DNA from: an uncultured Alphaproteobacteria bacterium
Lineage (GTDB): Bacteria; Pseudomonadota; Alphaproteobacteria; Rs-D84
Assembly (NCBI GenBank): GCA_947367055.1
Contig: CANBCI010000003.1
Coordinates: forward strand, 92,713 to 156,712
Direction: 5' to 3'
DNA length: 64,000 nt
In this document: positions 11,977-64,000 of the stretch, piece after piece
Numbering within the stretch: the first letter of the stretch is position 1
How the letters are laid out: each line of letters starts with the position of its first letter
Translations under genes and position numbers: made by a program
Notes under the pieces: model-generated
What the model was told of the DNA's origin: nothing
Seen by the model: only the letters and a program-made list of their open reading frames with translations
Databases searched by the model: none

Positions 11977-12981
11977 ATGGCATTAAAAGAATACACCACA
12001 ATGACAACCAAAGATTGGTTGCGGGTCGCCAGCACCGCATACAAGGCATATGTAAAAACAAGAACAGGAAACAATCAAGGCACATCAGATGACGAAGAAA
12101 AATGCGATGGCATAATTCAGGTTGGCGGCTATACCCGTTCCGATGGCGCAAAAGTTGGTGCATATGAAAGAATTTGCCCATATCATTATCAAGGCGGGAA
12201 ACGTCCAAATGAAGAAAACAAAGAGAAAAAATTTTCTTTAACCACAGGAATTTCTTCAAGTAGTAATGCCAACAGCAATGATGTTATAAAACTGAAAACA
12301 TACTTAAACAAAATGAATTATTACAAACCGGAACCGCGCAGTGAAACAGAAGACAAGTTTCACGGGTATCCGAATGACGCCTTGGTGGATGCGATTAAAA
12401 ACTTTCAAAAAGATAATGGATTGATTGCGACCGGTAAAATATTTCCAGGCGACGCGACTGAATCTGCAATAAACAGTAAATTTGAATCGCACGGCGTGAC
12501 ATTTGAATATCCAGTGAATACAAACAAGAATCAAATCGCAATATTTGATGGCAAATCACTGACATTGTATGAAAATGATAAAAAAATAAAATCATGGGAC
12601 GGAATGTCTGGAAAGCCTGATTATCAAGGCAAAGAAAACCAAGGTTTAAAAAATAAAGGCCCATTACCAGAAGGTACATACGTTGCAAGGCAGTCAAAGA
12701 TACAAAATATAGATCTAAAAAATGCTGCTTTGGGTTCGGCAAGCGCTATCGGCATAAAAGCCGGCGGATGGCCAGGTTCTTATTATTCATGGGGCAAGCA
12801 CAGGGTTTGGCTGGAAGCATCACAAGAAACAAACACATACAATCGAAACAAATTTAGCATACATGGCGGTTGGCGCCCAGGTTCTGCAGGCTGTATTGAT
12901 TTGACCGATGGGATAAATACTTTTATTAAAGAATTAGAAAGTACTGGCAAAGACTTGGTTATTAAAGTAAAATACGAATAA
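11977..12981 (+). CDS. Tlde1/DUF2778-like L,D-transpeptidase-fold toxin with a peptidoglycan-binding domain
   Basis: The PG_binding_1-like segment is DALVDAIKNFQKDNGLIATGKI. The C-terminus has GPLPEGTY and HGGWRPGSAGCID (an H...SxGC catalytic motif). Confidence 0.65.
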   Translation: MALKEYTTMTTKDWLRVASTAYKAYVKTRTGNNQGTSDDEEKCDGIIQVGGYTRSDGAKVGAYERICPYHYQGGKRPNEENKEKKFSLTTGISSSSNANSNDVIKLKTYLNKMNYYKPEPRSETEDKFHGYPNDALVDAIKNFQKDNGLIATGKIFPGDATESAINSKFESHGVTFEYPVNTNKNQIAIFDGKSLTLYENDKKIKSWDGMSGKPDYQGKENQGLKNKGPLPEGTYVARQSKIQNIDLKNAALGSASAIGIKAGGWPGSYYSWGKHRVWLEASQETNTYNRNKFSIHGGWRPGSAGCIDLTDGINTFIKELESTGKDLVIKVKYE

Positions 12982-13346
12982 TGAAACGATGGCAAAAGAT
13001 AATTTTCGGCATATTCTTAGCAATACATGCGTTGATTATGTATGCATGCGTTTATGATTATTATGATGCAATTATCAAAAATTGCGCGGGCTGGGGCCCG
13101 GGCTTTGACTGTCCTTGGGGCAGTGAGGCCATGGGGGTTGCGTGGACAGATCCATATGTATACATCTCCATGCTAAGCAGGGATTTTATGATGTCTATTG
13201 TATTTGTTATGTTCTCAATTCTCGCAGTACATAAAAAGAACTATACAATTGCAATCTGGTTCTTAGCATTACCGTTATTGGTAGGTTTTTGTGCTCATAT
13301 TGCAGAGATACCGCTGTCAGCATCGATTATGTTTACACAGACATAA
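12981..13346 (+). CDS. Multi-pass membrane protein, candidate cognate immunity protein
   Basis: TAATG start/stop overlap with the toxin gene. It has 3-4 hydrophobic helices. Confidence 0.5.
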   Translation: MKRWQKIIFGIFLAIHALIMYACVYDYYDAIIKNCAGWGPGFDCPWGSEAMGVAWTDPYVYISMLSRDFMMSIVFVMFSILAVHKKNYTIAIWFLALPLLVGFCAHIAEIPLSASIMFTQT

Positions 13347-14101
13347 ATTGTCTTATAAATGGTAAAAACAGGTATCGGCATGAAAAAATATGTTCATATT
13401 ATATTGGCATGTGTTGCGGCGATTGCATTTTGTGCTTTTATGATATTTTTTTTGGGATTTGGCTCTTTTTAACCGAGTCGGCAAGATGTGTAGCATCTGG
13501 GAAAATATATTTTACGAATATGGCAGAAGCGAAAACCGTATGGCTGTATTGATGGCTGATATGGATATTTTGGGTGTTTTTGGCTCTTTACTGATATTCG
13601 AAATTCCAATGTTGGAACTGTTTATGCGATATAAATATTGGATAATGTTAATACCTGTTATTGGCTTCATCTTATTTTTGTTTATTGCGCCAATAACTTT
13701 ATGTCCGGTGTAATACGGATGATATTAGAACACATGTTGTTTTAGGCTTTCCACTGCCAAGGCGAAAAAGGCCAATGTATAGAAAGTGGTTTTTATTTGC
13801 CAATTTTTGAAATTTCGCGATATACCGCGGATGAGTTATAAATAAAAAGCCCCGATTGCCCGGGGCCTTGCGCGTTATATGTTTGTATATTTAAAATATA
13901 ACTGATTCCTGGCGGAGGTAGATAATTATACGGTCTATTGCACACAACAACAGGGAATTTAATTCAAAATCTATCTTTTCTATTGATTTTTTAGCCAATT
14001 TTTGATATAATCTTCGTTAAGATAAGCAGGCGATTTTGTCGCCGTTTTTTATTGCTCTGCCCGATGTCGGCGGGGCTTTTTTATTACCCAAAGGAATAAC
14101 C

Positions 14102-14752
14102 ATGAAAAAGTCACACATTGTCATTTCCGACATAACATGCATGAAAGAAAAGTTCTGCATTGCCGGTTTTGACACGTATGAAAAGCGTATGAAACGTCTA
14201 ATGATTGACGGTGGATATTGGGATGCGAATCAAATTCCGGCCACATATTGCGAAATACTTGTTGATAACGAAGAATTCAAGGAGCCACGTGATTACCCAC
14301 ACCGAACCGAAGATGTAAATATAGATTTTGATTCAATTGAAGTTTTGCAAGAATTTGAACCAGGAAAAGATCTGGCAAATGCTTTGCGCGATAGCGTTTC
14401 AAAAGATATCCAGGGCATATTCCATCATCAGGTCAAAGAAGATACCTATGTGCCACAGAAAACCAAATGCCCTTCGTTGGGCGCCATATTGATTCCGGCA
14501 CACAATATTGAATTCTTTACAGAAGACGGCAAATTACGCGCCCGTATTACAGACTATTCCAAACAAACATATGAATTAAAGGTCAGTTGCAAATACCTGC
14601 GTGATATATTCGAAAAAGACAAAGATGTCACAGGTTTGAACAATGCTGTTGCCGCCAGCCAGTATGCCCACTGTCGCATAGGATTGGCACGAAAGTTTCT
14701 TATGCGGGAAAATCATTGCTATTTGATGTTAAACGGGCTATTTTTGTATTGA
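14102..14752 (+). CDS. Hypothetical protein (216 aa)
   Basis: An AAAGGA SD is present. The stop lies 1 nt from the DUF488 start. No family was recognised with confidence. Confidence 0.6.
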   Translation: MKKSHIVISDITCMKEKFCIAGFDTYEKRMKRLMIDGGYWDANQIPATYCEILVDNEEFKEPRDYPHRTEDVNIDFDSIEVLQEFEPGKDLANALRDSVSKDIQGIFHHQVKEDTYVPQKTKCPSLGAILIPAHNIEFFTEDGKLRARITDYSKQTYELKVSCKYLRDIFEKDKDVTGLNNAVAASQYAHCRIGLARKFLMRENHCYLMLNGLFLY

Positions 14753-14753
14753 T

Positions 14754-15179
14754 ATGACAAAGATTTTTACGATTGGTTTTAGTGGTAAAAGTCCTGACGC
14801 GTTTCTGGATGTGCTAAACGCGGTGCGTGTGCGTGCTGTTTGGGACATACGCCTGTGGCGAACAAGCATATACGTGCCATTCTACAGTGGCGACAGTTTG
14901 GCGGGTGTGCTGGGGAAGCGGTACGAATATCACCCAGAATTCGCCCCAAGCACCGAAATCCTTGCCGGTTACAAAGATGGCCGCATAACCTGGCCTGATT
15001 ATGAGCGTATGTACCATGAATTGCTGACCACACGCCATCCGACCGCAGGAATGACACCGGACGCGCTTGACCGCATTTGCCTGCTATGCACTGAAAAATC
15101 CGCCACACAATGCCACCGACGCATTGCTACCGAATACATTGCAGCACAATTTTCTGATATTGAAATTGTGGATTTATAA
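14754..15179 (+). CDS. DUF488-family protein
   Basis: The signature reads IFTIGFSGKS...VWDIRLWRTS...LLCTEKSATQCHRRIATEYI. Confidence 0.8.
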   Translation: MTKIFTIGFSGKSPDAFLDVLNAVRVRAVWDIRLWRTSIYVPFYSGDSLAGVLGKRYEYHPEFAPSTEILAGYKDGRITWPDYERMYHELLTTRHPTAGMTPDALDRICLLCTEKSATQCHRRIATEYIAAQFSDIEIVDL

Positions 15180-16613
15180 TTATCCCCCAAAATCTAGTGT
15201 ACAAGAGCTACTAAAAATCGTTAATGTCTTGCATGCCCTGCTTATTGCTACATAAAAATTCTTACAATCCATTGTTTGTGCATCTAAAACAATCACGTTA
15301 TCAAATTCTAAACCCTTTGTAAGAAGCGTAGAACCAATACACTTACTATGTAAGCTTCGACCTGCTTGGCGTATTTTGTTCTTATATGCATACATTGAAT
15401 CACATATAGACATATCAGATATAGCAGCATCTTTCACTGCTTTTATTATGGCGTTCAATAGTTCCGGGCGCTGATATTTTAATTTAAGTTCATCTTTCAT
15501 GAATTTGACGATATAATGTAACGATTGTTTATCTATGCAATTGTTTTGCAATTTTTCGATGTGGGATTTTAGCAAATTGCATTTTTCTATATCCGATTGA
15601 CTCCTTTTACATTTTAATCCTGTTGCATTAAACCAGTTAGCAATATCTGTTTTATTAAATATGAATGATTCGCAAATTTCTTTAAATAAAGAAAATTGTC
15701 TTTCAGATGTGCAGAGATCATCTAATTTGGCCGATATATTATAAAAATCTCTATCATCAATTGATTCAATTAATTGAAACCGCTGCAACCCCAAAGAATT
15801 ACGTAATTTTTGTCTCTGTTTTATTTGCCTATTATCTATTATCAGTATATTATCATAGGTATTAGCTAGTCTCAAAAGGCTTCTTTTATACAAAGTATCC
15901 TCATAAACACCACCAGATGTTCGTATAAAAGTTATGCCAGGCCTATCTACCGACAAATCTATAATGCTATCTACTTCAATATGTCGTCTAATTTCTTTTA
16001 TGGACTCCCCTAATTCAAGATTGTTGCTATTTGTACTCCTCCACCGCCATGGTATTTCCAACGTTCCTGCCTCATCTGAAAAATCACATAAACACTCATT
16101 AAATTCAACCAGTTGTTCTCTAAATTCAAAAATACCTTGCAGAGGATCGCCTAGTACATGCATTGGAATAAAATCTTTCAGTTTCATTAGCATATTATGC
16201 TGTTTTAACGTACAATCCTGATATTCATCAATAAATATACCTGTATATGTTTTTTTGATTATTCCAATTATTGGTCTCTTTGAAAATAATTCCGTCGCTT
16301 TTTCAATAATAATATCATGAAATCCAACTGCCTTTTGTTCTGGAACTTGATTTGCCATAAATCCTAGAACATATTTTTGAGCATAACCGCATATTGTTTC
16401 AACATTATATGCGGATGGTCGAACTCCTTGTTTTAATAGTTTTGACTTTATTGAAGCCACACCTGCGTGAGTATGCGTTAAAATAAGCTGTTTCCCCTTA
16501 TTGCGTTCATACGTATACTTGATACACTCTGCAATAAATTGCGTTTTTCCATAACCCGCCGGCGCAATCACTTTTGTCTTTAAACCACTTATAAACGTCT
16601 CTATATCTACCAT
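15180..16613 (-). CDS. gajB: UvrD-like superfamily 1 helicase (Gabija GajB-like)
   Basis: It has the APAGYGKT Walker A, FIDEYQD motif II and LTKGLEFDNVIVLD / YVAISRA C-terminal motifs. The start abuts the gajA-like stop. Confidence 0.8.
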   Translation of the reverse strand: MVDIETFISGLKTKVIAPAGYGKTQFIAECIKYTYERNKGKQLILTHTHAGVASIKSKLLKQGVRPSAYNVETICGYAQKYVLGFMANQVPEQKAVGFHDIIIEKATELFSKRPIIGIIKKTYTGIFIDEYQDCTLKQHNMLMKLKDFIPMHVLGDPLQGIFEFREQLVEFNECLCDFSDEAGTLEIPWRWRSTNSNNLELGESIKEIRRHIEVDSIIDLSVDRPGITFIRTSGGVYEDTLYKRSLLRLANTYDNILIIDNRQIKQRQKLRNSLGLQRFQLIESIDDRDFYNISAKLDDLCTSERQFSLFKEICESFIFNKTDIANWFNATGLKCKRSQSDIEKCNLLKSHIEKLQNNCIDKQSLHYIVKFMKDELKLKYQRPELLNAIIKAVKDAAISDMSICDSMYAYKNKIRQAGRSLHSKCIGSTLLTKGLEFDNVIVLDAQTMDCKNFYVAISRACKTLTIFSSSCTLDFGG

Positions 16614-18251
16614 TTATGCGTCAATCCATTCTGATAACGCGTTCCAAACTCTTTTCATATGACAGTCAGAAACCGCCCCCCAATTCGCGAATATAGTATT
16701 TCCCAACGTTTCAGCCTTATCAATTCTTTTGTACCATTCTCTATCTTTGTTAATTGACAATTTTGCAATTCTAATTCTATCTCTCTCAATATCAACTACA
16801 TTTCCCAAGGAAGAAGTATCTTCTTTTGAAATTATGCCTTCTATTACATCCCAAGGCAAATCTTTAAAAATTTGATGTTCTATATCATTACCGTCTTCAG
16901 AATCAAAAACCTGTATCCCATTGTCCCTCAATGCTTGTTTCTGTCCATTTACATCGGCTCTATCAGAATCTAAAAAAACACACACATCAAAGCCTAAGTC
17001 CTTTATTTTCTTAGCTCTATCAATTGCGCTACTTCCTTCTCCTACAATATAAAAACAATCTTTAGATGCCATTGACGGTAAATTTTGTTTTACACGCCAA
17101 GAATCCATAGCTCTGCATATTCCTATTTCTGTTTTTCCTTCACAAACAATGATTTTATTACAAAAAAATCCTTCAGGGTTTGCTCTAACAATGGCCTGCC
17201 AATTATCTTTTGAAGGAATATTTTTAATATACACATTTTCTTTGTCATCGAACTTTTTTACTAAATATAAATCATTTGAATTAAGTTCTACAATTGCATC
17301 TCGCGAATGAGTAGTCAGAAAAATCTGCCCCTTGTTTTCATTTTTTAACGATGATACTATTTGTCTAATTCTATCAGGTTCCAAACCTTGCTCTATTTCA
17401 TCTATCAACACAATTCCACCACGTTTTGCCAGAGCTAATTGTATCGCCATAGAAATTATACGTTTTGAGCCCTTACCCATTAAACGCAATGGGATATTAT
17501 TATCGTTATTTAAACATACCTTGTTATCTTTGATAACAATATCCTTAAAATCAATTGATGTTTTCATTGCACCAATATTTAATCCCAATATACCTACATA
17601 TTTTGTTACTTCATTTATTGCACTTTCTGTTTGTGGAAACCCCGCGCTATCTATATTTATTTTTACTTCACGCAGCCTATCAATAATTATATTACGCTCA
17701 TCTGTTTCTGACGAAAAATTCTTCAACAATTGATAAAGAGGCGACCCCTTACTCCAAGAAAAATGCTTATCAACATAGTCAGATATAAAAGAACAGTTTA
17801 ATTTTGATCTGTCTGTTGCGGATATCGCTTTGGGCTCCTGACGCCCAGTCACCATTTCCCATTTTGGTTCCAATGTTTTATCCACAGTTAATCTAATAGT
17901 ATATACATCTTCCAACTCCGGGTTATCTATTACTTCATCTGTAATTTCACCCGTACTTTTATTATATTGTCTTTTGTATAAACCAAATTTATCTTCTGTT
18001 TGCAATATATCCGGAATATTTGCTAATGTAGCCTCTATTTTTATTGGTTGAGTAACATCTGCATTAAAGAAGTCTGTATCATAAAATTGCAAAATATGGC
18101 TGGGGTATAAAACATAATAAATAGAATCCAAAATTGTTGTTTTTCCGCTATCTCCTCTACCAATTAAGCAAATAAAATTTTTATCAAACGTTTCTGAAAG
18201 ACATTTGATTCCACGAAAATTTTCTATATCCAACTTTAATATATTACTCAA
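16614..18251 (-). CDS. gajA: OLD-family ATPase plus Toprim nuclease (Gabija GajA-like)
   Basis: The N-terminus has GRGDSGKTT, followed by VLIDEIEQGLEP. The C-terminal Toprim has IIVCEGKTE and FLDSDR. Confidence 0.8.
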   Translation of the reverse strand: MSNILKLDIENFRGIKCLSETFDKNFICLIGRGDSGKTTILDSIYYVLYPSHILQFYDTDFFNADVTQPIKIEATLANIPDILQTEDKFGLYKRQYNKSTGEITDEVIDNPELEDVYTIRLTVDKTLEPKWEMVTGRQEPKAISATDRSKLNCSFISDYVDKHFSWSKGSPLYQLLKNFSSETDERNIIIDRLREVKINIDSAGFPQTESAINEVTKYVGILGLNIGAMKTSIDFKDIVIKDNKVCLNNDNNIPLRLMGKGSKRIISMAIQLALAKRGGIVLIDEIEQGLEPDRIRQIVSSLKNENKGQIFLTTHSRDAIVELNSNDLYLVKKFDDKENVYIKNIPSKDNWQAIVRANPEGFFCNKIIVCEGKTEIGICRAMDSWRVKQNLPSMASKDCFYIVGEGSSAIDRAKKIKDLGFDVCVFLDSDRADVNGQKQALRDNGIQVFDSEDGNDIEHQIFKDLPWDVIEGIISKEDTSSLGNVVDIERDRIRIAKLSINKDREWYKRIDKAETLGNTIFANWGAVSDCHMKRVWNALSEWIDA

Positions 18252-18370
18252 GCTGTTACCTCTATTAAATTACTAATAATTTTACAAAGACAATATATAG
18301 AATTCAAGCACATTAATTTTAAGTAGATTACATTATTTACATAGCAGCAAAATCCCCATAAACAATCAAC

Positions 18371-18399
18371 TTGATTTACTTTATTTATCACGGTACACT
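18371..18399 (+). promoter_or_regulatory. Promoter candidate for leader RNA copy 1
   Basis: TTGATT, a 17-nt spacer, then TACACT. Confidence 0.45.
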
Positions 18400-18405
18400 T
18401 TTCTC

Positions 18406-18588
18406 TTGAACCCAATGGGAATTGGGTTCGGGGCTGTGGTGGCCCGCAGACGCGGCATTTGTCGTTAAAATCCCCCGACTTTGGTCGGGGAGCCGTTCGC
18501 TATAAAACAGGGCTTGCCCGAAGGCTGCGGAGCATTCGTTTGCTGACACCAACTCCCCGGCCGTCAATTCCGTTGACGGTCTTTGATT
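18406..18588 (+). ncRNA. Structured leader RNA, family copy 1 (unassigned)
   Basis: It has a 9-bp P1 hairpin at 18408-18429, conserved blocks shared with 63757-63995 and 26860-27065, and an intrinsic terminator at 18561-18588. Confidence 0.6.
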
Positions 18589-18608
18589 TATAAACAAGGG
18601 GAATTTCT

Positions 18609-18839
18609 ATGATTATTACTACAGATTTAGATCTCTCAGTAACTTTATTCGTTGTATGCATTACCGTGATTATAGGTGGCGTGATTAAGCGTGCAACAGC
18701 AAATAGTAAAGCCAAAGCCTATGCTGAATATGTAGAAGAATGCAAAAAGTCCAAAAAGGAACCACTGGATTATGTTTCGTGGGAACGATTGGAAGCCGCC
18801 GCCCCACGATCATATGCAGACGATGACGATTGGGAATAA
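18609..18839 (+). CDS. Small single-pass membrane protein with an acidic tail
   Basis: A GGGGAA SD is present. It has one TM helix (VTLFVVCITVIIGGVI) and a DDDDWE C-terminus. Confidence 0.5.
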   Translation: MIITTDLDLSVTLFVVCITVIIGGVIKRATANSKAKAYAEYVEECKKSKKEPLDYVSWERLEAAAPRSYADDDDWE

Positions 18840-18841
18840 AT

Positions 18842-19525
18842 ATGAATATTACAGAATCCGTTATTTCTGCATTTATGAATCTGAAACAAAAGCATCGGTT
18901 CTTTGTATCCGAGGCGGATTTTCAAGCATCTTTTACATGGGAACTGGCGCAAGTATTTCATGACCGACCAGATGTTAAAATATACCGTGAATTTCCTGTG
19001 CGCGTATATGACACCCAGTGGCGTACAATTTATATCGACATTTTGATTGTTGCCGATGGTCAAAGGTTTCCCATTGAGTTAAAATACAAAACCAACACAA
19101 TAGACTCTGACGAATTATATGAAGACACTGGCATCCCGATCAGAGACATATTAAAACCACAAGGTGCCAAAGACGAAGGCAGTTATGACTGTTGGAAAGA
19201 CATATCACGCATAGAGAAATTAGTTAATATCGGTTTTGCCCACAGTGGTATCTTTATATGCATTGCAAACGACAAATATTATTGGAACGGCAATTGCGGC
19301 GAAAGTACTCTTGGCTACGCATTTCGTATGAACTCGGGTCATAAATACGGTGGTGAATATAACTGGAATTTGGCAAATTGTGCAAACATAGAAAAGTTGC
19401 TAAAAGCGCGTCCAAATTTACATATCATGAATGACTATGAATTTGCCTGGCAGGACTTCTACGAGATGCGGGCACAAAATGGTTTGTTTAAGTTTTTATT
19501 AATCAAAATCCCATCAACGGAGTAG
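18842..19525 (+). CDS. PD-(D/E)xK nuclease-fold candidate
   Basis: YIDILIVADGQRFPIELKYK fits the D...ExK motif. Confidence 0.55.
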   Translation: MNITESVISAFMNLKQKHRFFVSEADFQASFTWELAQVFHDRPDVKIYREFPVRVYDTQWRTIYIDILIVADGQRFPIELKYKTNTIDSDELYEDTGIPIRDILKPQGAKDEGSYDCWKDISRIEKLVNIGFAHSGIFICIANDKYYWNGNCGESTLGYAFRMNSGHKYGGEYNWNLANCANIEKLLKARPNLHIMNDYEFAWQDFYEMRAQNGLFKFLLIKIPSTE

Positions 19526-19530
19526 CAAAA

Positions 19531-19827
19531 ATGACGAAAATATCGTTTATTATATTAGGCTTATTAAGTTTAACGGCATGTGCTACGGAAACAAGAGCTG
19601 TAGAAGTTTAGCACATAGATCCAGAATGGGAAATCTATAGTATTACATACAATGTAAAGCTGATCTTGAACAATTGTCAATATGACGACGACTGGGCCGA
19701 TGAGCAGAGTTACATCTGGTCTGGAAACTTTGAAAACACACATAAATCATTCTCGTTTACAACAGCCATGGGGGGGCAAAGGACTGTCCCTGTGTATTCT
19801 GGTGTTTGTTCAGTAAAAAAATTCTAA
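19531..19827 (+). pseudogene. Small lipoprotein gene interrupted by one in-frame TAG
   Basis: It has a signal peptide and lipobox (ILGLLSLTAC). The TAG is at 19609-19611, and the frame stays open for 71 more codons. Confidence 0.45.
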
Positions 19828-19890
19828 AAAGAACGCTGTTTGTCCTGGGAAAAAGATTGCGTTATTGAACAAAAAGATGATCGATATTCA

Positions 19891-19914
19891 AAAACGCCCC
19901 CAAAGGGGCGTTTT
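19891..19914 (+). terminator. Intrinsic terminator
   Basis: AAAACGCCCC-CAAA-GGGGCGTTTT. Confidence 0.6.
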
Positions 19915-20015
19915 ATTCATTGTTGCATCGCATAGTTTATGCACTAGGTTAATGCATCAACCTGGTCTTTGTATTTGCTGTTTGGAAATCCCAACAGCTC
20001 TTTCTTGAAATCTGA

Positions 20016-20260
20016 CTACCATGGTGCTTCCTTTTGTGGGAATTTCAATGTGCTGTTTTCTATCAAAGCGCTACACCCTATCAGACGCGAATACAGCGTA
20101 GAGCCATACCATTCGTTTAACTTGGCATGTTGGGATTCTGATGACGCATCCACAGATTTTTGCGGATCGTCTATTATAATCCAGTCCGCCCCACGCCCAG
20201 TCAACGTTCCACCGATATATGTAGCCATACGCCCGCCACTGTGGACGCAATGAGGCACAT
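20016..20260 (-). pseudogene. Phage terminase large-subunit fragment
   Basis: GGTLTGRGADWIIIDDPQK...LNEWYGSTLYSRL resembles the Walker-B region of terminase/GTA-type large subunits. Only about 80 aa remain. Confidence 0.5.
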
Positions 20261-20308
20261 AAACATTCAAAACGCACCATACGCAGAAAAAAAATCTTTG
20301 TTCAATCA

Positions 20309-20770
20309 TTGGTTGATAAAGTTATATACTCGCAGGAAAAACTGATATTTTATCTGATACCAGACGTGGCAAAATTACAACCATTCGCGGCCGAGAACTT
20401 TATAAATCAGAAATCTGATCCGATGGAATTTACGGTCAGCGATAGTCGCATCGTTATAGCCGTCCCGATTGTCCTGCGAAAATATGTGCATACAGTATTT
20501 GATAAAACCAAGAACGGCGTCTTGACCATCACCGATAACAACCACCTAATCCTTAAAGCCTTCGCAACAGCATTGCGGTATCGAGAGATGTATGAAGAAT
20601 GTGGCGACACCGATAAAATCATCGCCATGTAACATACATCCCCACGCCAGTTTTACCGCCACCTTGACCTAGCATATATGAATCCGGACAAAATCAACGA
20701 AATTCTGTCCGGACGATTAAAAATTAATGTTAATGATTTGTTCCATATTGCTACTGTAAATTATTTATAA
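20309..20770 (+). pseudogene. C-terminal remnant of a serine-recombinase-family protein with an in-frame TAA
   Basis: LKAFATALRYREMYEE...(TAA at 20630-20632)...LDLAYMNPDKINEILSGR. There is no catalytic domain. Confidence 0.5.
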
Positions 20771-21835
20771 TTATTTTGTGTTGTTTTCTTGTTCTACTTG
20801 CGCACTAGCAATTGGGGTACTGACGCCATATACTTTTCTTTTATTCAAAAAAACTTCTCTCAACACTTTGTTTTCGCGTTTTATTGCAGTATCTAAATCC
20901 ACAGAATGGTCTGGAGCTTTAGAAAAATATTCTGATAATATTTGCCACTTCAAATCGGATTTGGCGTTTTCTATATCTTCTTTATTTTCAAAATCAATTT
21001 CACGTCCCAATACGATACTAACACTTTGTTCATTCATATGCGTGATTAACGCCTCTATCGCTGATATTTTTCGTTTCTCCCCATTAATTTTTTCATACAC
21101 ATTAAAAAGGGCATTAAATATTTTATACAAAACGAACAATATCCCTACAAACAGTAAGGCATTTGGGATTTTAACAACAACTATCGAAAGTGCCGCATAC
21201 ACCCAATTCCAACCATTTGGCACAAGACTTGCATTGATAAGGTTCAGCTGCTCTGAAAAAAGACTTAAAGTTTCAGAGATATTGCAAAGAGAAAAACAGC
21301 CAAGAATTACCGCCAACACAATTGCTCCAAACATACACCGTCCATAAAAACGCATGTTTTTAACGGACTCTTCTTTGAAATCTTTGACGCTATTTATAAT
21401 TTTTATATTTTTTTCGATCTTCGCCTTGTGCTTTTGATATTTTTCATCCAATAGCTTCGTTTTGTTAGCTATTTCTTCTTCTCGCTTTTGAGCGGTCTCT
21501 TCCAACTCAACAATCCTATTTTCTAATTGTATTTTCTTATGATTCAAAGACACCGCAGGATATTCACCCGTATCGTCTTGGAGGCCAATTTTTGTTTCCA
21601 ACTGATCCTGTGCTGTTTTCAACTGATTAATATTATTAATCAGCGCATTCTCCTCCGATTTATATCTGGTCAAATTCTGTGTGTTTACAGAAATATCTGA
21701 CTGTAAGGAAGTCAATGTATCTTGCGCTTGCGATATTTCATTTTGTAGTGTCTGTTTTTCCGTTTCCAATTGTTTATTTTCTTCAATAAGTTGTTGCCTA
21801 CTTAATGCTAATGCGGAATTTGTTATGGGTGCCAT
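20771..21835 (-). CDS. Coiled-coil protein with two central TM helices
   Basis: The N-terminal 190 aa or so are heptad-rich (Q/E/L/N). The TM segments are FGAIVLAVILGCFSL and VYAALSIVVVKIPNALLFVGILFVLY. Confidence 0.6.
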   Translation of the reverse strand: MAPITNSALALSRQQLIEENKQLETEKQTLQNEISQAQDTLTSLQSDISVNTQNLTRYKSEENALINNINQLKTAQDQLETKIGLQDDTGEYPAVSLNHKKIQLENRIVELEETAQKREEEIANKTKLLDEKYQKHKAKIEKNIKIINSVKDFKEESVKNMRFYGRCMFGAIVLAVILGCFSLCNISETLSLFSEQLNLINASLVPNGWNWVYAALSIVVVKIPNALLFVGILFVLYKIFNALFNVYEKINGEKRKISAIEALITHMNEQSVSIVLGREIDFENKEDIENAKSDLKWQILSEYFSKAPDHSVDLDTAIKRENKVLREVFLNKRKVYGVSTPIASAQVEQENNTK

Positions 21836-22064
21836 TATTTAGTCCTTTTATTTTATCACGTTTTATGTAGGATTTTTTTAACAGTTTTCAAGGGATAATA
21901 CGCAAAACTGGCATCCTTATTTTAGGCAAGGTATGCTGCGCGAGGAATTATGGTGTGATTTGGTGCGAAGGCGAGTATACACCGGTACCGTTGCTGATAA
22001 AAATCCTCGGATTCCGGAGCAAAAGAAACATCCCGCGGGATTACCGTGGGATGCGTCACATTCC

Positions 22065-22154
22065 TGGCGGATGGGGAGGGATTCGAACCCCCGGAAGCAT
22101 TGCTGCTTCAACGGTTTTCAAGACCGCCGCAATCGACCGCTCTGCCACCCATCC
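22065..22154 (-). tRNA. tRNA-Ser (UGA)
   Basis: A 90-nt cloverleaf folded by hand. It has a long variable arm, anticodon loop CUUGAAA and an encoded CCA. Confidence 0.95.
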
Positions 22155-26808: not shown

Positions 26809-26859
26809 AGTCTTTATTTTTAATCGCATATGTTTTATACTTTTATTAAATACGCAGGA

Positions 26860-27065
26860 AATGTGGATTTGGAACTTAGAAAATCCCTTATACCTTCGGT
26901 GCGTGAAATTCACGCATCGTTAAAAAAATGGCATCAAATTTGATGCCCCCCGACGCATAGGTCGGGTTGTCGCGGTTATAAAACAGGTCTTATCCAAAAC
27001 CCGCGAGGTCATTAAGGTATATGATTTTTCTAACATCCCGGCCACCACATAATTGGTGGTTTTTC
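26860..27065 (+). ncRNA. Structured leader RNA, family copy 3 (5' half diverged)
   Basis: It shares the CCCGAC/GTCGGG hairpin, the TTATAAAACAGG block, the CCCGGCC segment and the terminator architecture with copies 1 and 2. The 5' boundary is uncertain. Confidence 0.45.
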
Positions 27066-27093
27066 GTTGTGTATTAACAAAGGAAGGGGAAAA

Positions 27094-50747: not shown

Positions 50748-51016
50748 GGCATTTTTGCCATAACCATTTCGATAAATTCAGGCCATGTCGTGTTTGTTGC
50801 ATGCAACATTCTATCCACTGTTTCAAATGTCGGAAACCGCGGGCGACCGGTGCGGGACGCATAACGCTTTGACGGGTTGAACGCGGTTAAAGTCAATCCC
50901 GTTATACGCGCCAGACCGCATGCCGTCAGTCCATTATTCGCCGCGAGTTCATCAATCGCCGCCCACAACGCGCCATGAAATTCACGCAGAGCCCCGTCTA
51001 TTTTATTTAGCCACAT
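50744..51016 (-). CDS. Small HTH DNA-binding protein (paralogue of 5071-5322)
   Basis: LTACGLARITGLTLTAFNPSKRY. Confidence 0.55.
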   Translation of the reverse strand: MWLNKIDGALREFHGALWAAIDELAANNGLTACGLARITGLTLTAFNPSKRYASRTGRPRFPTFETVDRMLHATNTTWPEFIEMVMAKMP

Positions 51017-51356
51017 TTAGACGCCGTATTATATTTAATATCATTTTCTTGTCCGCGTCATTCATTTGGCACAGACACCGGATTATATCCCGCATTGTTT
51101 GGTCATACACGGCGTTGTACCGTTCAACCTCGCCAAACAATGTGCTAACCGGCATTTCCATTGCCTGCGCGATTTGAAACAAACGCGACGCAGATATTCG
51201 ATTACCGGCGGTTTCATATTTTTGTAATTGCTGAAAAGTGACACCGATTTTACGCGCCAAATCCTTTTGTCGCATGCCAAATTTATTGCGCCAATTTGCA
51301 ACAATTTGGCCGATATAGACATCGATTTCACTTGGCTTAAATGGCCGACCAGACAT
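51003..51356 (-). CDS. XRE-family transcriptional regulator
   Basis: GMRQKDLARKIGVTFQQLQKYETAGNRISASRL. An AGGGGAG SD is present. Confidence 0.8.
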   Translation of the reverse strand: MSGRPFKPSEIDVYIGQIVANWRNKFGMRQKDLARKIGVTFQQLQKYETAGNRISASRLFQIAQAMEMPVSTLFGEVERYNAVYDQTMRDIIRCLCQMNDADKKMILNIIRRLNVAK

Positions 51357-51392
51357 GTTCTTATCTCCCCTGTTTTTTATTAAAAACAAAAA

Positions 51393-51415
51393 CCACTGGA
51401 AATTATTTCAAGTGG
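51393..51415. promoter_or_regulatory. Imperfect 23-bp palindrome (operator candidate)
   Basis: CCACTgGAAAt-t-aTTTCaAGTGG lies between the XRE gene start and the first array module. Confidence 0.35.
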
Positions 51416-52972
51416 CTGGAGGATAGAAACAATACGAAAGTCGATTGCCCTGTTTATTTAAATATATCACAGGCCTCCAGCCATTTCGACTGGACAAGAC
51501 AATGCCCACGTGGGCTTCTTTCGTATCTTGAGGTTTCTATGCCCCATTTGCAACAGGAGTAAATACCAATATGCGTTCCGAATTATATCAGTTGCAGGAC
51601 ATATTTCCACAAAAAAATGCGTGCTACTAATATAAAAACCCATCAAATAACAGACGGGCTGGAGGTTAGTATTTGCACGCTTACTTGCTCACCGTCTATT
51701 CAATATATTCAACGGCCTCCAACCCTGTCGGATTGGGTTTTCGCCCACGTGGGCGATAAGCGCGCGGCATACTAATTCCGCATAATGGAACACCCATTAC
51801 AATTAGTACTATATCCTATATTTATAAATTATGCAAACAATTATTACGGGAATTAAATACACAATTTCGCATTATTAAATAATTAAAATGGTTGGAGTTA
51901 AAATGATACTCAAACGTTATCCCGGCTTATTCAATATATTCGCCGACTCCAACCAACACTTGGTGGAGCATTTTACGCCTGCAGGCGGTTCTAGTGAGCG
52001 AGATTTCAGCTCGCACTTTTTTGCAACAGGGGGATGCCCATTACAATCATATTGTATCACATACATTTATAATTGCAACCGCCAAAATCTCTAGAAGACC
52101 GGGGCGGGAGTTACAGAACACATTACCAGAATGTGCCGATTGAAATTCAACCGGTCTCCCAACCCCGGATAGGGTTGAAAGTTTTACGCCTTTGCAGACA
52201 ACTGGTAATCGAGTTCTGTATTCTCGAGCAACGGAACTCCCGTTGCAACAAGTACTATATCCTATTTTTTATCATATTGCAAACAATTATTACGGGAATT
52301 AAATACACAATTTCGCATTATTAAATAATTAAAATGGTTGGGTGTTCGTAACAATACAAGCATTGCCCGCTTTATTCAATATATTCAGCGGTCCCCAACC
52401 AAATGGCTGGAAGTTAGTAACTGCACAGTAGCATGCAAGTGATTTATTTGGTTATTCATCACCATCCAGCCAGATTATATTTTACCGTACACCACGCATA
52501 CTTGCAAACAATTATTACAGGAATTAAATACACAATTTCGCATTATTAAAAATTAAAATGGTTGGAGCTGAAAAAGATAGTAAAACTTATCCCGGCTTAT
52601 TCGATATATTCGCCGGCTCCAACCAAATGGCTGGAAGTTAGTAACTGCACATACCATGCAAGTGATTTATTTGGTTATTCATCACCATCCAGCCAGATTA
52701 TATTTTACCGTACACCACGCATACTTGCAAACAATTATTACGGGAATTCTGGTATAATATTCGCATAAATAAATTTGTTGAAAATAACAAAACCTTATTT
52801 TATAATATACTCAACGTGATGAAAAATCACGCCGGGGTGTCGAAACCCTTAGTTCATTGATGTCCGTGGGGACATAAAAAACTCCACACCATATTTTAAT
52901 AATGGTTGGAGAATGGTGGGATAACCAATACACCATACTATTTTCATGAGCTATAGTTTCGAATCTCCAACC
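51414..52972 (+). repeat. Array of nine 65-70-nt stem-closed modules (candidate structured sRNA genes)
   Basis: Modules: A 51414-51482, B 51656-51725, C 51890-51954, D 52099-52168, E 52336-52400, F 52405-52471, G 52560-52624, H 52629-52694, I 52904-52972. Each is closed by a 7-12-bp GGYTGGRG.../...CYCCARCC-type stem. Confidence 0.6.
51994..52022 (+). terminator. Intrinsic terminator inside the array (after module C)
   Basis: A GCGAG-ATTTCAG-CTCGC stem-loop followed by TTTTTT. Confidence 0.5.
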
Positions 52973-63577: not shown

Positions 63578-63721
63578 AATGATGGTTTAAATCGTTTCGC
63601 ATGAATACCGGATTTCAACAAATTTCTTAAAATCATTTGTTATGAAATTGCATAAACACGTCGGCCCAAAGTCCCCCCATGCGTGTGTTTTTTCATCGAA
63701 ACCCGCGTTCAAACAAACACC

Positions 63722-63750
63722 TTGCGCCCTGTTTTTGTCTGTGTTAAAAT
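63722..63750 (+). promoter_or_regulatory. Promoter candidate for leader RNA copy 2
   Basis: TTGCGC, a 17-nt spacer, then TAAAAT. Confidence 0.45.
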
Positions 63751-63756
63751 AATAAT

Positions 63757-63995
63757 GAATCCAATGGGAATTGGGTTCGGGGCTGTCGAAAGCTCTCCAA
63801 AAAGCGGCATTGACAACAATGTTGAATCCGCCAATATAGGCGCAATAGCGTCTTTTATTGTATCACCCCACCAGTCACAGGTCGGGGAGCCGTCAGTTAT
63901 AAAACAGGGTTTCCCGAAGACTGGCGGAATCAGTCTTTTTGGTGATTTTCGAACTCTCCCGACCGTCAAATTTCCGTTGACGGTATTTTTATTTT
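63757..63995 (+). ncRNA. Structured leader RNA, family copy 2
   Basis: P1 (63757-63778) is near-identical to copy 1 and carries a U-G for C-G change. It shares blocks B2-B4 and has a terminator at 63962-63990. The downstream gene lies off-window. Confidence 0.6.
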
Positions 63996-64000
63996 AACGG

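Follow-up and report, generated by a model that had tools for sequence, protein, structure and literature searches.

A family of structured leader RNAs in gut Alphaproteobacteria, distantly related to sRNA-Xcc1 and c4, as candidate conditional terminators

Three copies of one leader RNA

The subject of this work is a family of structured leader RNAs, three copies of which lie on the plus strand of a 64-kb stretch of DNA (the window; 64,000 nucleotides (nt) of contig CANBCI010000003.1, assembly GCA_947367055.1) from an uncultured alphaproteobacterium of the lineage Rs-D84. Copy 1 (18371-18608) lies in a low-GC island (~12000-22154, 34-39% GC) beside a Gabija pair and is the only copy in a defence island, copy 3 (26813-27093) precedes the gene of a secreted protein, and copy 2 (63722-64000) has a complete leader with its gene cut by the window end. 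From 5' to 3' the copies share a weak sigma70-like promoter, a hairpin H1 with a GNRA loop, a second hairpin H2, variable hairpins, a C-rich strand termed anti-P1, a three-way junction of the helices P1, P2 and P3, an intrinsic terminator that has 3-4 nt in common with P1, a Shine-Dalgarno (SD) sequence and finally the gene. An earlier note, made from the sequence alone, had placed three plus-strand elements at 18406-18588, 63757-63995 and 26860-27065, and all were found again on that strand at or near these positions. That the leader is a real, conserved and structured RNA family is, in our judgement, practically certain.

Relatives were gathered with an exact 21-nt pattern, GGTCGGGNNGNCGN{3,6}TATAAAACAGG, which returned 69 genome loci and one viral contig; one locus (L011) was a chance match within a coding region and was dropped, which leaves 68 genome members besides the window copies. 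Since an exact pattern was used for the collection, GGUCGGG and UAUAAAACAGG are invariant partly by construction, and the family sequences are phylogenetically related, so that all statistics given below are to be read accordingly. Nearly all members come from Candidatus Enterousia and other uncultured gut Alphaproteobacteria or 'Rickettsiales' metagenome-assembled genomes (MAGs), with humans, ruminants, horses, chickens and termites as hosts, and 11 assemblies carry two to three loci each even under the strict pattern. Enterousia belongs to the order Rs-D84, which consists of uncultured gut bacteria with genomes mostly below 1 Mb (PMC12306168).

A covarying three-way junction

The 3' part of the leader adopts the same three-way junction in nearly all of 54 distinct cores when these are folded as single sequences. 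P1 comprises 10 base pairs (bp; GGUCGGGGAG/CUCCCCGACC) and P2 9 bp, followed by an internal loop in which AUAAAACA faces GAA or AAA and which encloses a mini-hairpin, P2b; P3 has 5-7 bp, and the strand J3/1 that leads from P3 back to P1 measures about 7 nt. MAFFT and RNAalifold applied to the raw flanks recovered P1 and the terminator only and misaligned P2 and P3, for which reason constrained single-sequence folds and a covariance model were used instead. This model, R1, was built from 22 junction cores of relatives outside copies 1 and 3. Run on the window it detects all three junctions, that of copy 2 with 89 bits (E-value (E) 4e-18), that of copy 3 with 78 bits (E 2e-15) and that of copy 1 with 54 bits (E 6e-10), and the R1 alignment takes in 72 family members. 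Among the 59 distinct sequences of this alignment, 96.7% of cells are standard pairs, double changes occur in 12 of 27 pairs, and 119 compensatory cells were counted versus 26 expected from shuffles, while slid controls were only 31-53% paired. Because the alignment is model-fitted and the sequences are related, these figures lean towards structure, but the margin is still large. They lend strong support to two helices that had been proposed from the window copies, namely the distal pairing (P1) and the helix of variable sequence around UAUAAAACAGG (P2). In one relative (L044:620-734) an insertion of ~30 nt lengthens P2b into a long stem; since the remaining junction is intact, P2b tolerates insertions.

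G-U pairs are frequent in the junction (e.g. UG:30 and GU:29 at single positions), where they alternate with A-U or G-C. These pairs would not form on the opposite strand, and the structure is therefore that of a plus-strand RNA. This bears on the idea that the leader is no RNA element at all and constitutes a repeat that functions as DNA, whether as a miniature mobile element, as a site of recombination or as an array bound by proteins. The occurrence of several copies per genome (three in the 64-kb window; at least two loci in each of the 11 assemblies) would fit such a repeat, as would the near-identity of one subtype across many MAGs. However, the heavy reliance on G-U pairs, which are possible only in the plus-strand transcript, the fixed orientation relative to promoter, terminator and downstream gene, and a sequence that varies freely while its pairing is kept leave this idea with hardly any credit; no terminal repeats or target duplications were seen either.

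Two long-range helices

Two further helices connect the 5' hairpins with the junction. PK1 is formed by the H2 loop and J3/1, which are Watson-Crick complementary in 38 of 39 members; 87% of members reach at least 6 bp of strict Watson-Crick pairing, versus 15% with permuted partners, and the 24 distinct box pairs include UUAGAAAA:UUUUCUAA, UCGAAA:UUUCGA, UCACAA:UUGUGA, UGGUAA:UUACCA and UGAUUA:UAAUCA. PK2 joins the 3' flank of H2 to the P3 loop and measures 7-14 bp; 95% of members reach 7 bp or more, versus 33% for permuted partners, and the helix comes in 35 distinct sequence pairs. Both helices are present in all three window copies (Table 1). The statistics are permutation tests by our own Python scripts rather than R-scape, there being no in-register unbiased alignment for formal pair counts. 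Geometrically, PK1 and PK2 would be ordinary H-type pseudoknots that are compatible with H2 and P3. Because they tie the 5' hairpins to the 3' junction, the whole leader of ~190-240 nt is one folded unit. PK1 and PK2 are absent from the earlier note and are newly recognised here.

Table 1. Coordinates of leader elements and neighbouring features in the window
Feature	Copy	Position	Strand	Remarks
Promoter-like site	1	-35 TTGATT 18371-18376; -10 TACACT 18394-18399	+	17-nt spacer; 8/12 consensus
H1	1	18408-18429	+	GAACCCAAU-GGGA-AUUGGGUUC; 9-bp stem, GNRA-type loop
H2 (GGGC/GCCC)	1	18431-18445	+	loop holds PK1 5' box UGGUG 18437-18441
PK1	1	UGGUG 18437-18441 with CACCA 18547-18551	+
PK2	1	GCAGACG 18446-18452 with CGUUUGC 18537-18543	+	just 3' of H2 with P3 loop
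Anti-P1	1	CCCCGAC 18473-18479 with GUCGGGG 18484-18490	+	pairs with P1 5' strand; in RNAfold minimum-energy structure
P1	1	18483-18492 with 18553-18562	+
P2	1	18493-18501 with 18523-18530	+
Internal loop	1	AUAAAACA 18502-18509 opposite GAA 18520-18522	+
Mini-hairpin P2b	1	18510-18519	+
P3	1	18531-18544	+
J3/1	1	18545-18552	+	holds PK1 3' box CACCA 18547-18551
Junction (P1 to P1)	1	18483-18562	+	R1 54 bits
Terminator	1	18559-18591	+	GGCCGUCAA-UUCCG-UUGACGGUC then UUUGAUUUAU; first 4 nt (GGCC) are the end of the P1 3' strand
SD	1	18596-18602	+	AAGGGGA
First open reading frame (ORF)	1	18609-18839	+	76 amino acids (aa), predicted membrane protein
Second ORF	1	18830-19525	+	231 aa, overlaps 76-aa ORF
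Promoter	3	-35 TTTATT 26813-26818; -10 TATACT 26836-26841	+
H1, diverged	3	26848-26870	+
PK1	3	UUAGAAAA 26876-26883 with UUUUCUAA 27026-27033	+	5' box in H2 loop
PK2	3	UAUACCUU 26889-26896 with AAGGUAUA 27014-27021	+
Junction	3	26960-27043	+	R1 78 bits
Terminator	3	27040-27066	+
Gene	3	ATG 27094	+	after SD; 189-aa secreted Cys-rich protein
Promoter	2	-35 TTGCGC 63722-63727; -10 TAAAAT 63745-63750	+
H1	2	63757-63778	+
PK1	2	UCGAAA 63786-63791 with UUUCGA 63947-63952	+
PK2	2	CCAAAAAG 63797-63804 with CUUUUUGG 63935-63942	+
Junction	2	63880-63964	+	R1 89 bits
Terminator	2	63962-63994	+
104-aa ORF	2	63683-63997	+	probably spurious
PDC-M45C-like gene		14754-15179	+	candidate defence gene
GajB		15180-16613	−	1e-114
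GajA		16614-18251	−	2e-157
tRNA gene		22068-22154
Tandem-array unit A		52105-52178	−
Tandem-array unit B		51890-51955	−
Tandem-array unit C		51660-51735	−
Tandem-array unit D		51413-51484	−
XRE/Cro-like ORF		51003-51389	−	helix-turn-helix

The 5' domain and its promoter

H1 has a conserved GAA...UUC base and a middle part that covaries freely, and its loop is of the GNRA type (GGGA, GAGA, GAAA or GGAA). Across the family 94% of its cells are paired, with compensatory changes in six of nine pairs, and the hairpin GAAYCCAAU-GGGA-AUUGGGUUC described earlier for copies 1 and 2 is accordingly real; what had been missed is that copy 3 possesses the same 5' domain in a diverged form, its own H1 included. 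H2 (GGGGCU...AGCCC) follows H1 directly and is in turn followed by one or two variable hairpins; it is 73% paired, on an imperfect alignment. For the G-rich strand after H1 (GGUUCGGGG) RNAfold suggests a pairing with anti-P1 or with the P1 3' strand, but the variation of this strand is explained by H2 and does not follow P1.

A sigma70-like site with at least 8 of 12 consensus matches and a -10 box that ends 3-10 nt before H1 is found in 93% of members, versus 12% of shifted control windows. The promoters of the window copies are thus weaker than had been claimed (8/12 matches, where the scan threshold was 9/12), while their position is conserved. As this position is right before H1, the transcript probably starts at H1, which would then be the 5' end of the RNA. 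Attenuation by a leader peptide was considered and rejected, since relatives do not keep the AUG that copies 1 and 2 have in the H1 loop, the loop of other members being GAAA, GAGA or GGAA. For the same reason the 104-aa ORF that starts before copy 2, covers nearly the whole leader and is in frame with the H1-loop AUG is probably spurious, even though automatic annotation might call it.

Kinship with sRNA-Xcc1 and c4

At curated Rfam thresholds the whole window, searched with 4227 families of Rfam 15, yields four tRNAs only and no match to the leader. In permissive mode the best match of each copy is RF02221 (sRNA-Xcc1), aligned over the full model (positions 1-87) with 23.4 bits for copy 1, 30.2 for copy 2 and 30.9 for copy 3; none of the three reaches the gathering score of 53 bits. 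The family had been called unassigned, a label that no longer fully applies in view of this sub-threshold match. The relationship is reciprocal because R1, which contains the alphaproteobacterial family only, detects certified RF02221 members along their entire length, with scores of up to 50 bits (E 5e-8) and ~25 matches of E<1e-3. Both RNAs have a G-rich P1 (GGNCGGGG/CCCCGNCC), a P2 whose internal loop, AUAnAAnA facing GAA, encloses a mini-hairpin, a hairpin P3 and a J3/1 of ~7 nt. In both, the P3 loop and J3/1 pair partner-specifically with two short boxes, and some RF02221 members seem, by eye, to possess an upstream strand that could pair with the beginning of P1 as well. Unlike sRNA-Xcc1, the leader family adds the conserved H1/H2 domain that carries the boxes, a terminator fused to P1 and envelope genes downstream. 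No gathering-score match to C4 or isrK was found in the window, and E-value mode on the copies gave nothing significant for either (isrK E 0.78, copy 2).

A pattern for the canonical sRNA-Xcc1 core gave at least 120 matches in viral contigs (L071-L190), of which twelve sampled loci score 55-85 bits for RF02221. The P3 loop of canonical sRNA-Xcc1 is complementary to a box beside the SD of the following gene, with at least 7 nt in 80 of 91 members versus 27 of 273 permuted pairs and a mean of 7.25 versus 5.24 nt; this criterion was derived here from the 91 canonical members and is not a published one. The P3/J3/1 region matches upstream sequence as well. These pairings suggest a c4-like antisense or leader role for canonical sRNA-Xcc1 rather than that of a free-standing virulence sRNA. 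In the leader family, by comparison, the P3 loop and J3/1 show no complementarity to the downstream start region (mean 5.42 versus 5.17 nt permuted), and surface genes replace the prophage or integron setting before antirepressor- or toxin-type genes that is a trait of sRNA-Xcc1.

Canonical sRNA-Xcc1 is very common in phage and prophage contigs, where it sits ~110 nt upstream of antirepressor-like ORFs or of ~80-aa ORFs; the antirepressor-like N-termini are, by eye, of the AntA, Bro-N, KilA-N, Rha, ORF6N and P22 antirepressor types. It has been reported upstream of symE (bioRxiv 10.1101/2025.06.18.660453) and upstream of an ORF6N protein (PMC7313666). One prophage locus (L141:7577-9493) carries, on one strand, sRNA-Xcc1, isrK and C4 followed by four more sRNA-Xcc1 at ~381-nt spacing, which resembles the spacing of five tandem copies in a Xylella genomic island (PMC12189769). 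A BLAST search of plasmids with the Rfam consensus gave one partial match and was not useful.

The second relative is c4, an antisense RNA of phages P1 and P7, which represses icd/ant translation by covering the ribosome-binding site. According to what is reported of the work of Citron and Schuster in 1990, c4 recognises its target through two short elements, with matching boxes upstream (a1/b1) and downstream (a2/b2) in the same transcript. A literature search found nothing on the function of the a1/b1 boxes. The Rfam consensus of c4 (RF01695) has the same plan as the leader junction and consists of P1, the hairpins P2 and P3 (12 nt in the P3 loop), a J3/1 of 7 nt and a CC-rich tail. The leader family differs in having no downstream target: no boxes at the ribosome-binding site, as in c4, were found downstream in the leader family, its boxes lie only upstream in the same leader, and its output appears to be the terminator. 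In view of the upstream boxes only, the added H1/H2 domain and the terminator fused to P1, the leader is filed beside RF02221 and c4 rather than within them; judging from sequence and predicted fold it is a distant relative of these phage RNAs, a new variant and a member of neither.

This kinship raises the question whether the leader could itself be a c4-like antisense or 'immunity' RNA, in which the junction would be released so that its P3 loop and J3/1 pair in trans with the 5'-domain boxes of new transcripts, resulting in gene-specific feedback or a bistable ON/OFF state of individual surface genes. The junction plan is the same as that of RF01695 (long P1, P2, large-loop P3 and 7-nt J3/1), the junction is related to RF02221, and in canonical RF02221 the P3 loop and J3/1 are partner-specific for boxes both upstream and downstream, the latter beside the SD. 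The boxes differ between copies like addresses (24 and 35 distinct pairs). After P1 the sequence is usually GCCA, ACCA or GUCA, which is suggestive only as regards RNase P; the ~77-nt c4 RNA of phage P1 is reportedly released from its operon transcript by this enzyme. Yet complementarity to the downstream translation start region is lacking (5.4 versus 5.2 nt permuted), the matching boxes are found only within the same molecule, so that ordinary structural covariation explains their diversity, and a terminator fused to P1 would have no role in such a scheme. A c4-like mode of action is consequently regarded as rather unlikely.

A different RNA array within the window employs the same pairing logic. 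On the minus strand, four short three-way-junction units, A to D (51413-52178), follow each other at a spacing of ~215-245 nt, with TTGCAA -35-like motifs between them, and unit D is followed by a terminator, an SD and an XRE/Cro-like ORF. Two upstream boxes that pair with J3/1 and the P3 loop are present for units A, C and D (for unit D, AUAGAAAC:GUUUCUAU and AUACGAAAG:CUUUCGUAU), and for unit B the J3/1 box only. R1 gives weak matches to units B and D; an Rfam search of the array region (51.3-52.3 kb) had no match. The antitoxin RNAs of type III toxin-antitoxin systems consist of short direct repeats in tandem, upstream of the toxin gene and set apart from it by a terminator. Their promoter-RNA-terminator-gene layout is similar to that of the leader family, but they were rejected as a candidate, as each leader forms one unit of ~200 nt and is not made up of tandem repeats.

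Downstream genes and genomic setting

The distance from the first nucleotides of P1 to the start codon is ~120-140 nt in most members, whichever unrelated gene follows. Pfam searches of ten representatives identified autotransporter beta-domains with Chlamydia-PMP repeats, an outer-membrane beta-barrel, a PAP2 phosphatase, a PLD-like protein and glycosyltransferases (GT2, GT8 and GT-D), and most of the other products have signal peptides or lipoprotein signals as judged by eye. The closest relative of copy 2 (L032) has a near-identical junction core and precedes a GT-D glycosyltransferase.

Copy 1 is divergent from GajA of the minus-strand Gabija pair, and the same low-GC island contains a PDC-M45C-like candidate defence gene and a tRNA gene (Table 1). 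Neither the 76-aa nor the 231-aa ORF behind copy 1 has a Pfam or PADLOC match; in the 231-aa cargo protein a D...ELK stretch (YIDILIV...FPIELKYK) resembles, by eye only, a PD-(D/E)XK nuclease motif. The leader of copy 1 recurs in L016, L049 and L056, in the first two of these together with the same 76-aa ORF. More generally, the promoter-leader-terminator module of the copy 1 type (18371-18591) is near-identical in at least 14 loci from many MAGs and one viral contig (L001, L004, L006, L007, L016, L018, L041, L043, L049, L051, L052, L056 and L063 among the near-identical loci). The likeness begins at the -35 box and stops right after the terminator, and the cargo is of at least three kinds, an 82-aa protein, the 76-aa membrane ORF or a ~230-aa protein directly. 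To judge by these comparisons, the unit behaves like a portable expression module in variable islands.

Anti-P1, the terminator and a proposed switch

In most members a C-rich strand (CCCCGAC, CCCUGAC, or CCCCACC with a bulge) lies 3-12 nt before P1 and pairs with the P1 5' strand, which bears out the CCCCGAC/GUCGGGG hairpin of the earlier note as a family feature. The partner of P1 position 8 covaries: A is found with U in 7 of 7 cases, and for G the partner is C 31 times and U 7 times. The terminators proposed for the window copies were recovered by a scan, which returned terminator-like sites at 18559-18581, 27040-27061 and 63962-63984, and in most members the 3-4 nt that end the P1 3' strand (GACC or GGCC) are also the first of the terminator stem. 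The RNAfold minimum-energy structure of all three leaders contains anti-P1 and the full terminator. The P1-closed state costs 10-13 kcal/mol, a figure in which pseudoknots are uncounted since the program cannot model them; PK1 and PK2, which can form with P1 open or closed, could offset this cost only if they favoured the P1-closed state.

The arrangement can be read as follows. Each copy would constitute its own small transcription unit, in which a weak sigma70-type promoter drives an RNA of ~190-240 nt towards an intrinsic terminator. Because the SD and start codon would lie beyond this terminator, ~15-40 nt past it, the gene would be expressed only by read-through. P1 would be the switch point, its 5' strand having anti-P1 as an alternative partner and the last 3-4 nt of its 3' strand serving as the base of the terminator stem. 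Closure of P1 would cut the terminator to a weak 5-6 bp hairpin and sequester CUCCCC, resulting in read-through and a gene that is ON, whereas persistence of anti-P1 would allow the full 9-10 bp terminator to form and turn the gene OFF. Once free, CUCCCC may in addition cover the G-rich SD and add a layer of translational control; the P1 3' strand CUCCCC is indeed complementary to the G-rich SD, although any SD would show some such complementarity. Candidate triggers are a small molecule, an ion, a protein or a matching RNA in trans.

A few members (L020, L037 and L061) have no terminator after P1 and instead carry a G-rich SD (AAGGGGAA or AAGGGAA) ~25-45 nt past CUCCCC; they may represent a translational version of the expression platform. 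Riboswitch families likewise vary their expression platforms.

In its layout the leader resembles ON riboswitches and attenuators: a conserved, covarying and pseudoknotted domain resides in a 5' leader that has a promoter of its own, the helix that closes this domain appears to compete with a terminator, and an SD-type platform occurs occasionally. In the adenine riboswitch of the pbuE type, closure of P1 prevents terminator formation. The leader family differs from this precedent in its extra upstream competitor strand, anti-P1, and in the short terminator overlap of 3-4 nt. With respect to regulon and copy number c-di-GMP-I offers a comparison; the presence of many copies per genome before surface-related genes is a common trait. 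The riboswitch- or attenuator-like character suggested in the earlier note holds as regards the covarying helices, the mutually exclusive pairings, the terminator before the SD and the separate promoter, but the fold had been seen only in part.

Several observations weigh against such a switch. The regulated genes do not form one pathway and comprise surface proteins, glycosyltransferases and defence-island cargo, so that no single metabolite is indicated. An anti-P1 helix of at least 7 bp occurs in 88% of members versus 52% of composition-preserving shuffles, which is weak discrimination; because of this weak control it is the covariation at position 8 that is relied on for anti-P1. P1 and the terminator overlap by only 3-4 nt, so that a full terminator could form beside a frayed P1. 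PK1 and PK2 are independent of P1 and able to form with P1 open or closed, and alone they therefore do not separate ON from OFF. Finally, the nearest relatives, sRNA-Xcc1 and c4, are described as, or behave like, antisense RNAs and not ligand sensors.

It is also conceivable that the leader does not switch and is a constitutive structural element, which acts on RNA polymerase or Rho so that the terminator and long operons of surface genes are read through, or stabilises or processes the mRNA, with control residing at the promoter. The put and EAR elements and the leaders associated with NusG paralogues are models of processive antitermination, and a regulon of surface, glycosyltransferase and acquired cargo genes resembles the targets of such systems; the near-identity of the copy-1-type module, which precedes three different cargo genes across at least 14 loci, points in the same direction. 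Covarying exclusive pairings, of anti-P1 versus P1 versus the base of the terminator, are however hard to explain without switching, and most of the regulated units are single genes and not long operons. A constitutive role is accordingly thought improbable. Weighing all of this, a cis-acting conditional terminator, i.e. a riboswitch-like attenuator, is the best explanation of the leader and on balance a probable one.

Implications

A more far-reaching proposal, which is advanced only tentatively and may well prove wrong, is that the leader is an orphan riboswitch or a self-addressed RNA feedback switch, in either case a sensing RNA of a new class, and the main regulator of the surface proteome and its glycosylation in Rs-D84 bacteria with their genomes below 1 Mb. 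If so, the recognition elements of the c4/sRNA-Xcc1 junction would have been redirected to boxes inside the leader, within its 5' domain, and the junction would control a terminator instead of a ribosome-binding site. Irrespective of this proposal, the three RNAs, c4, sRNA-Xcc1 and the leader, are linked by one junction plan with two programmable pairing elements. For sRNA-Xcc1, which is usually annotated as a virulence-linked sRNA of Xanthomonas, the results suggest that it mainly leads genes resembling phage antirepressors. PK1 and PK2, which vary freely yet remain paired, would make the fold easily testable by compensatory mutation and an attractive scaffold for engineering. For the bacteria themselves, a leader that occurs three times in 64 kb, and in its family before autotransporters, outer-membrane proteins and glycosyltransferases, could be a principal means of controlling the cell surface.

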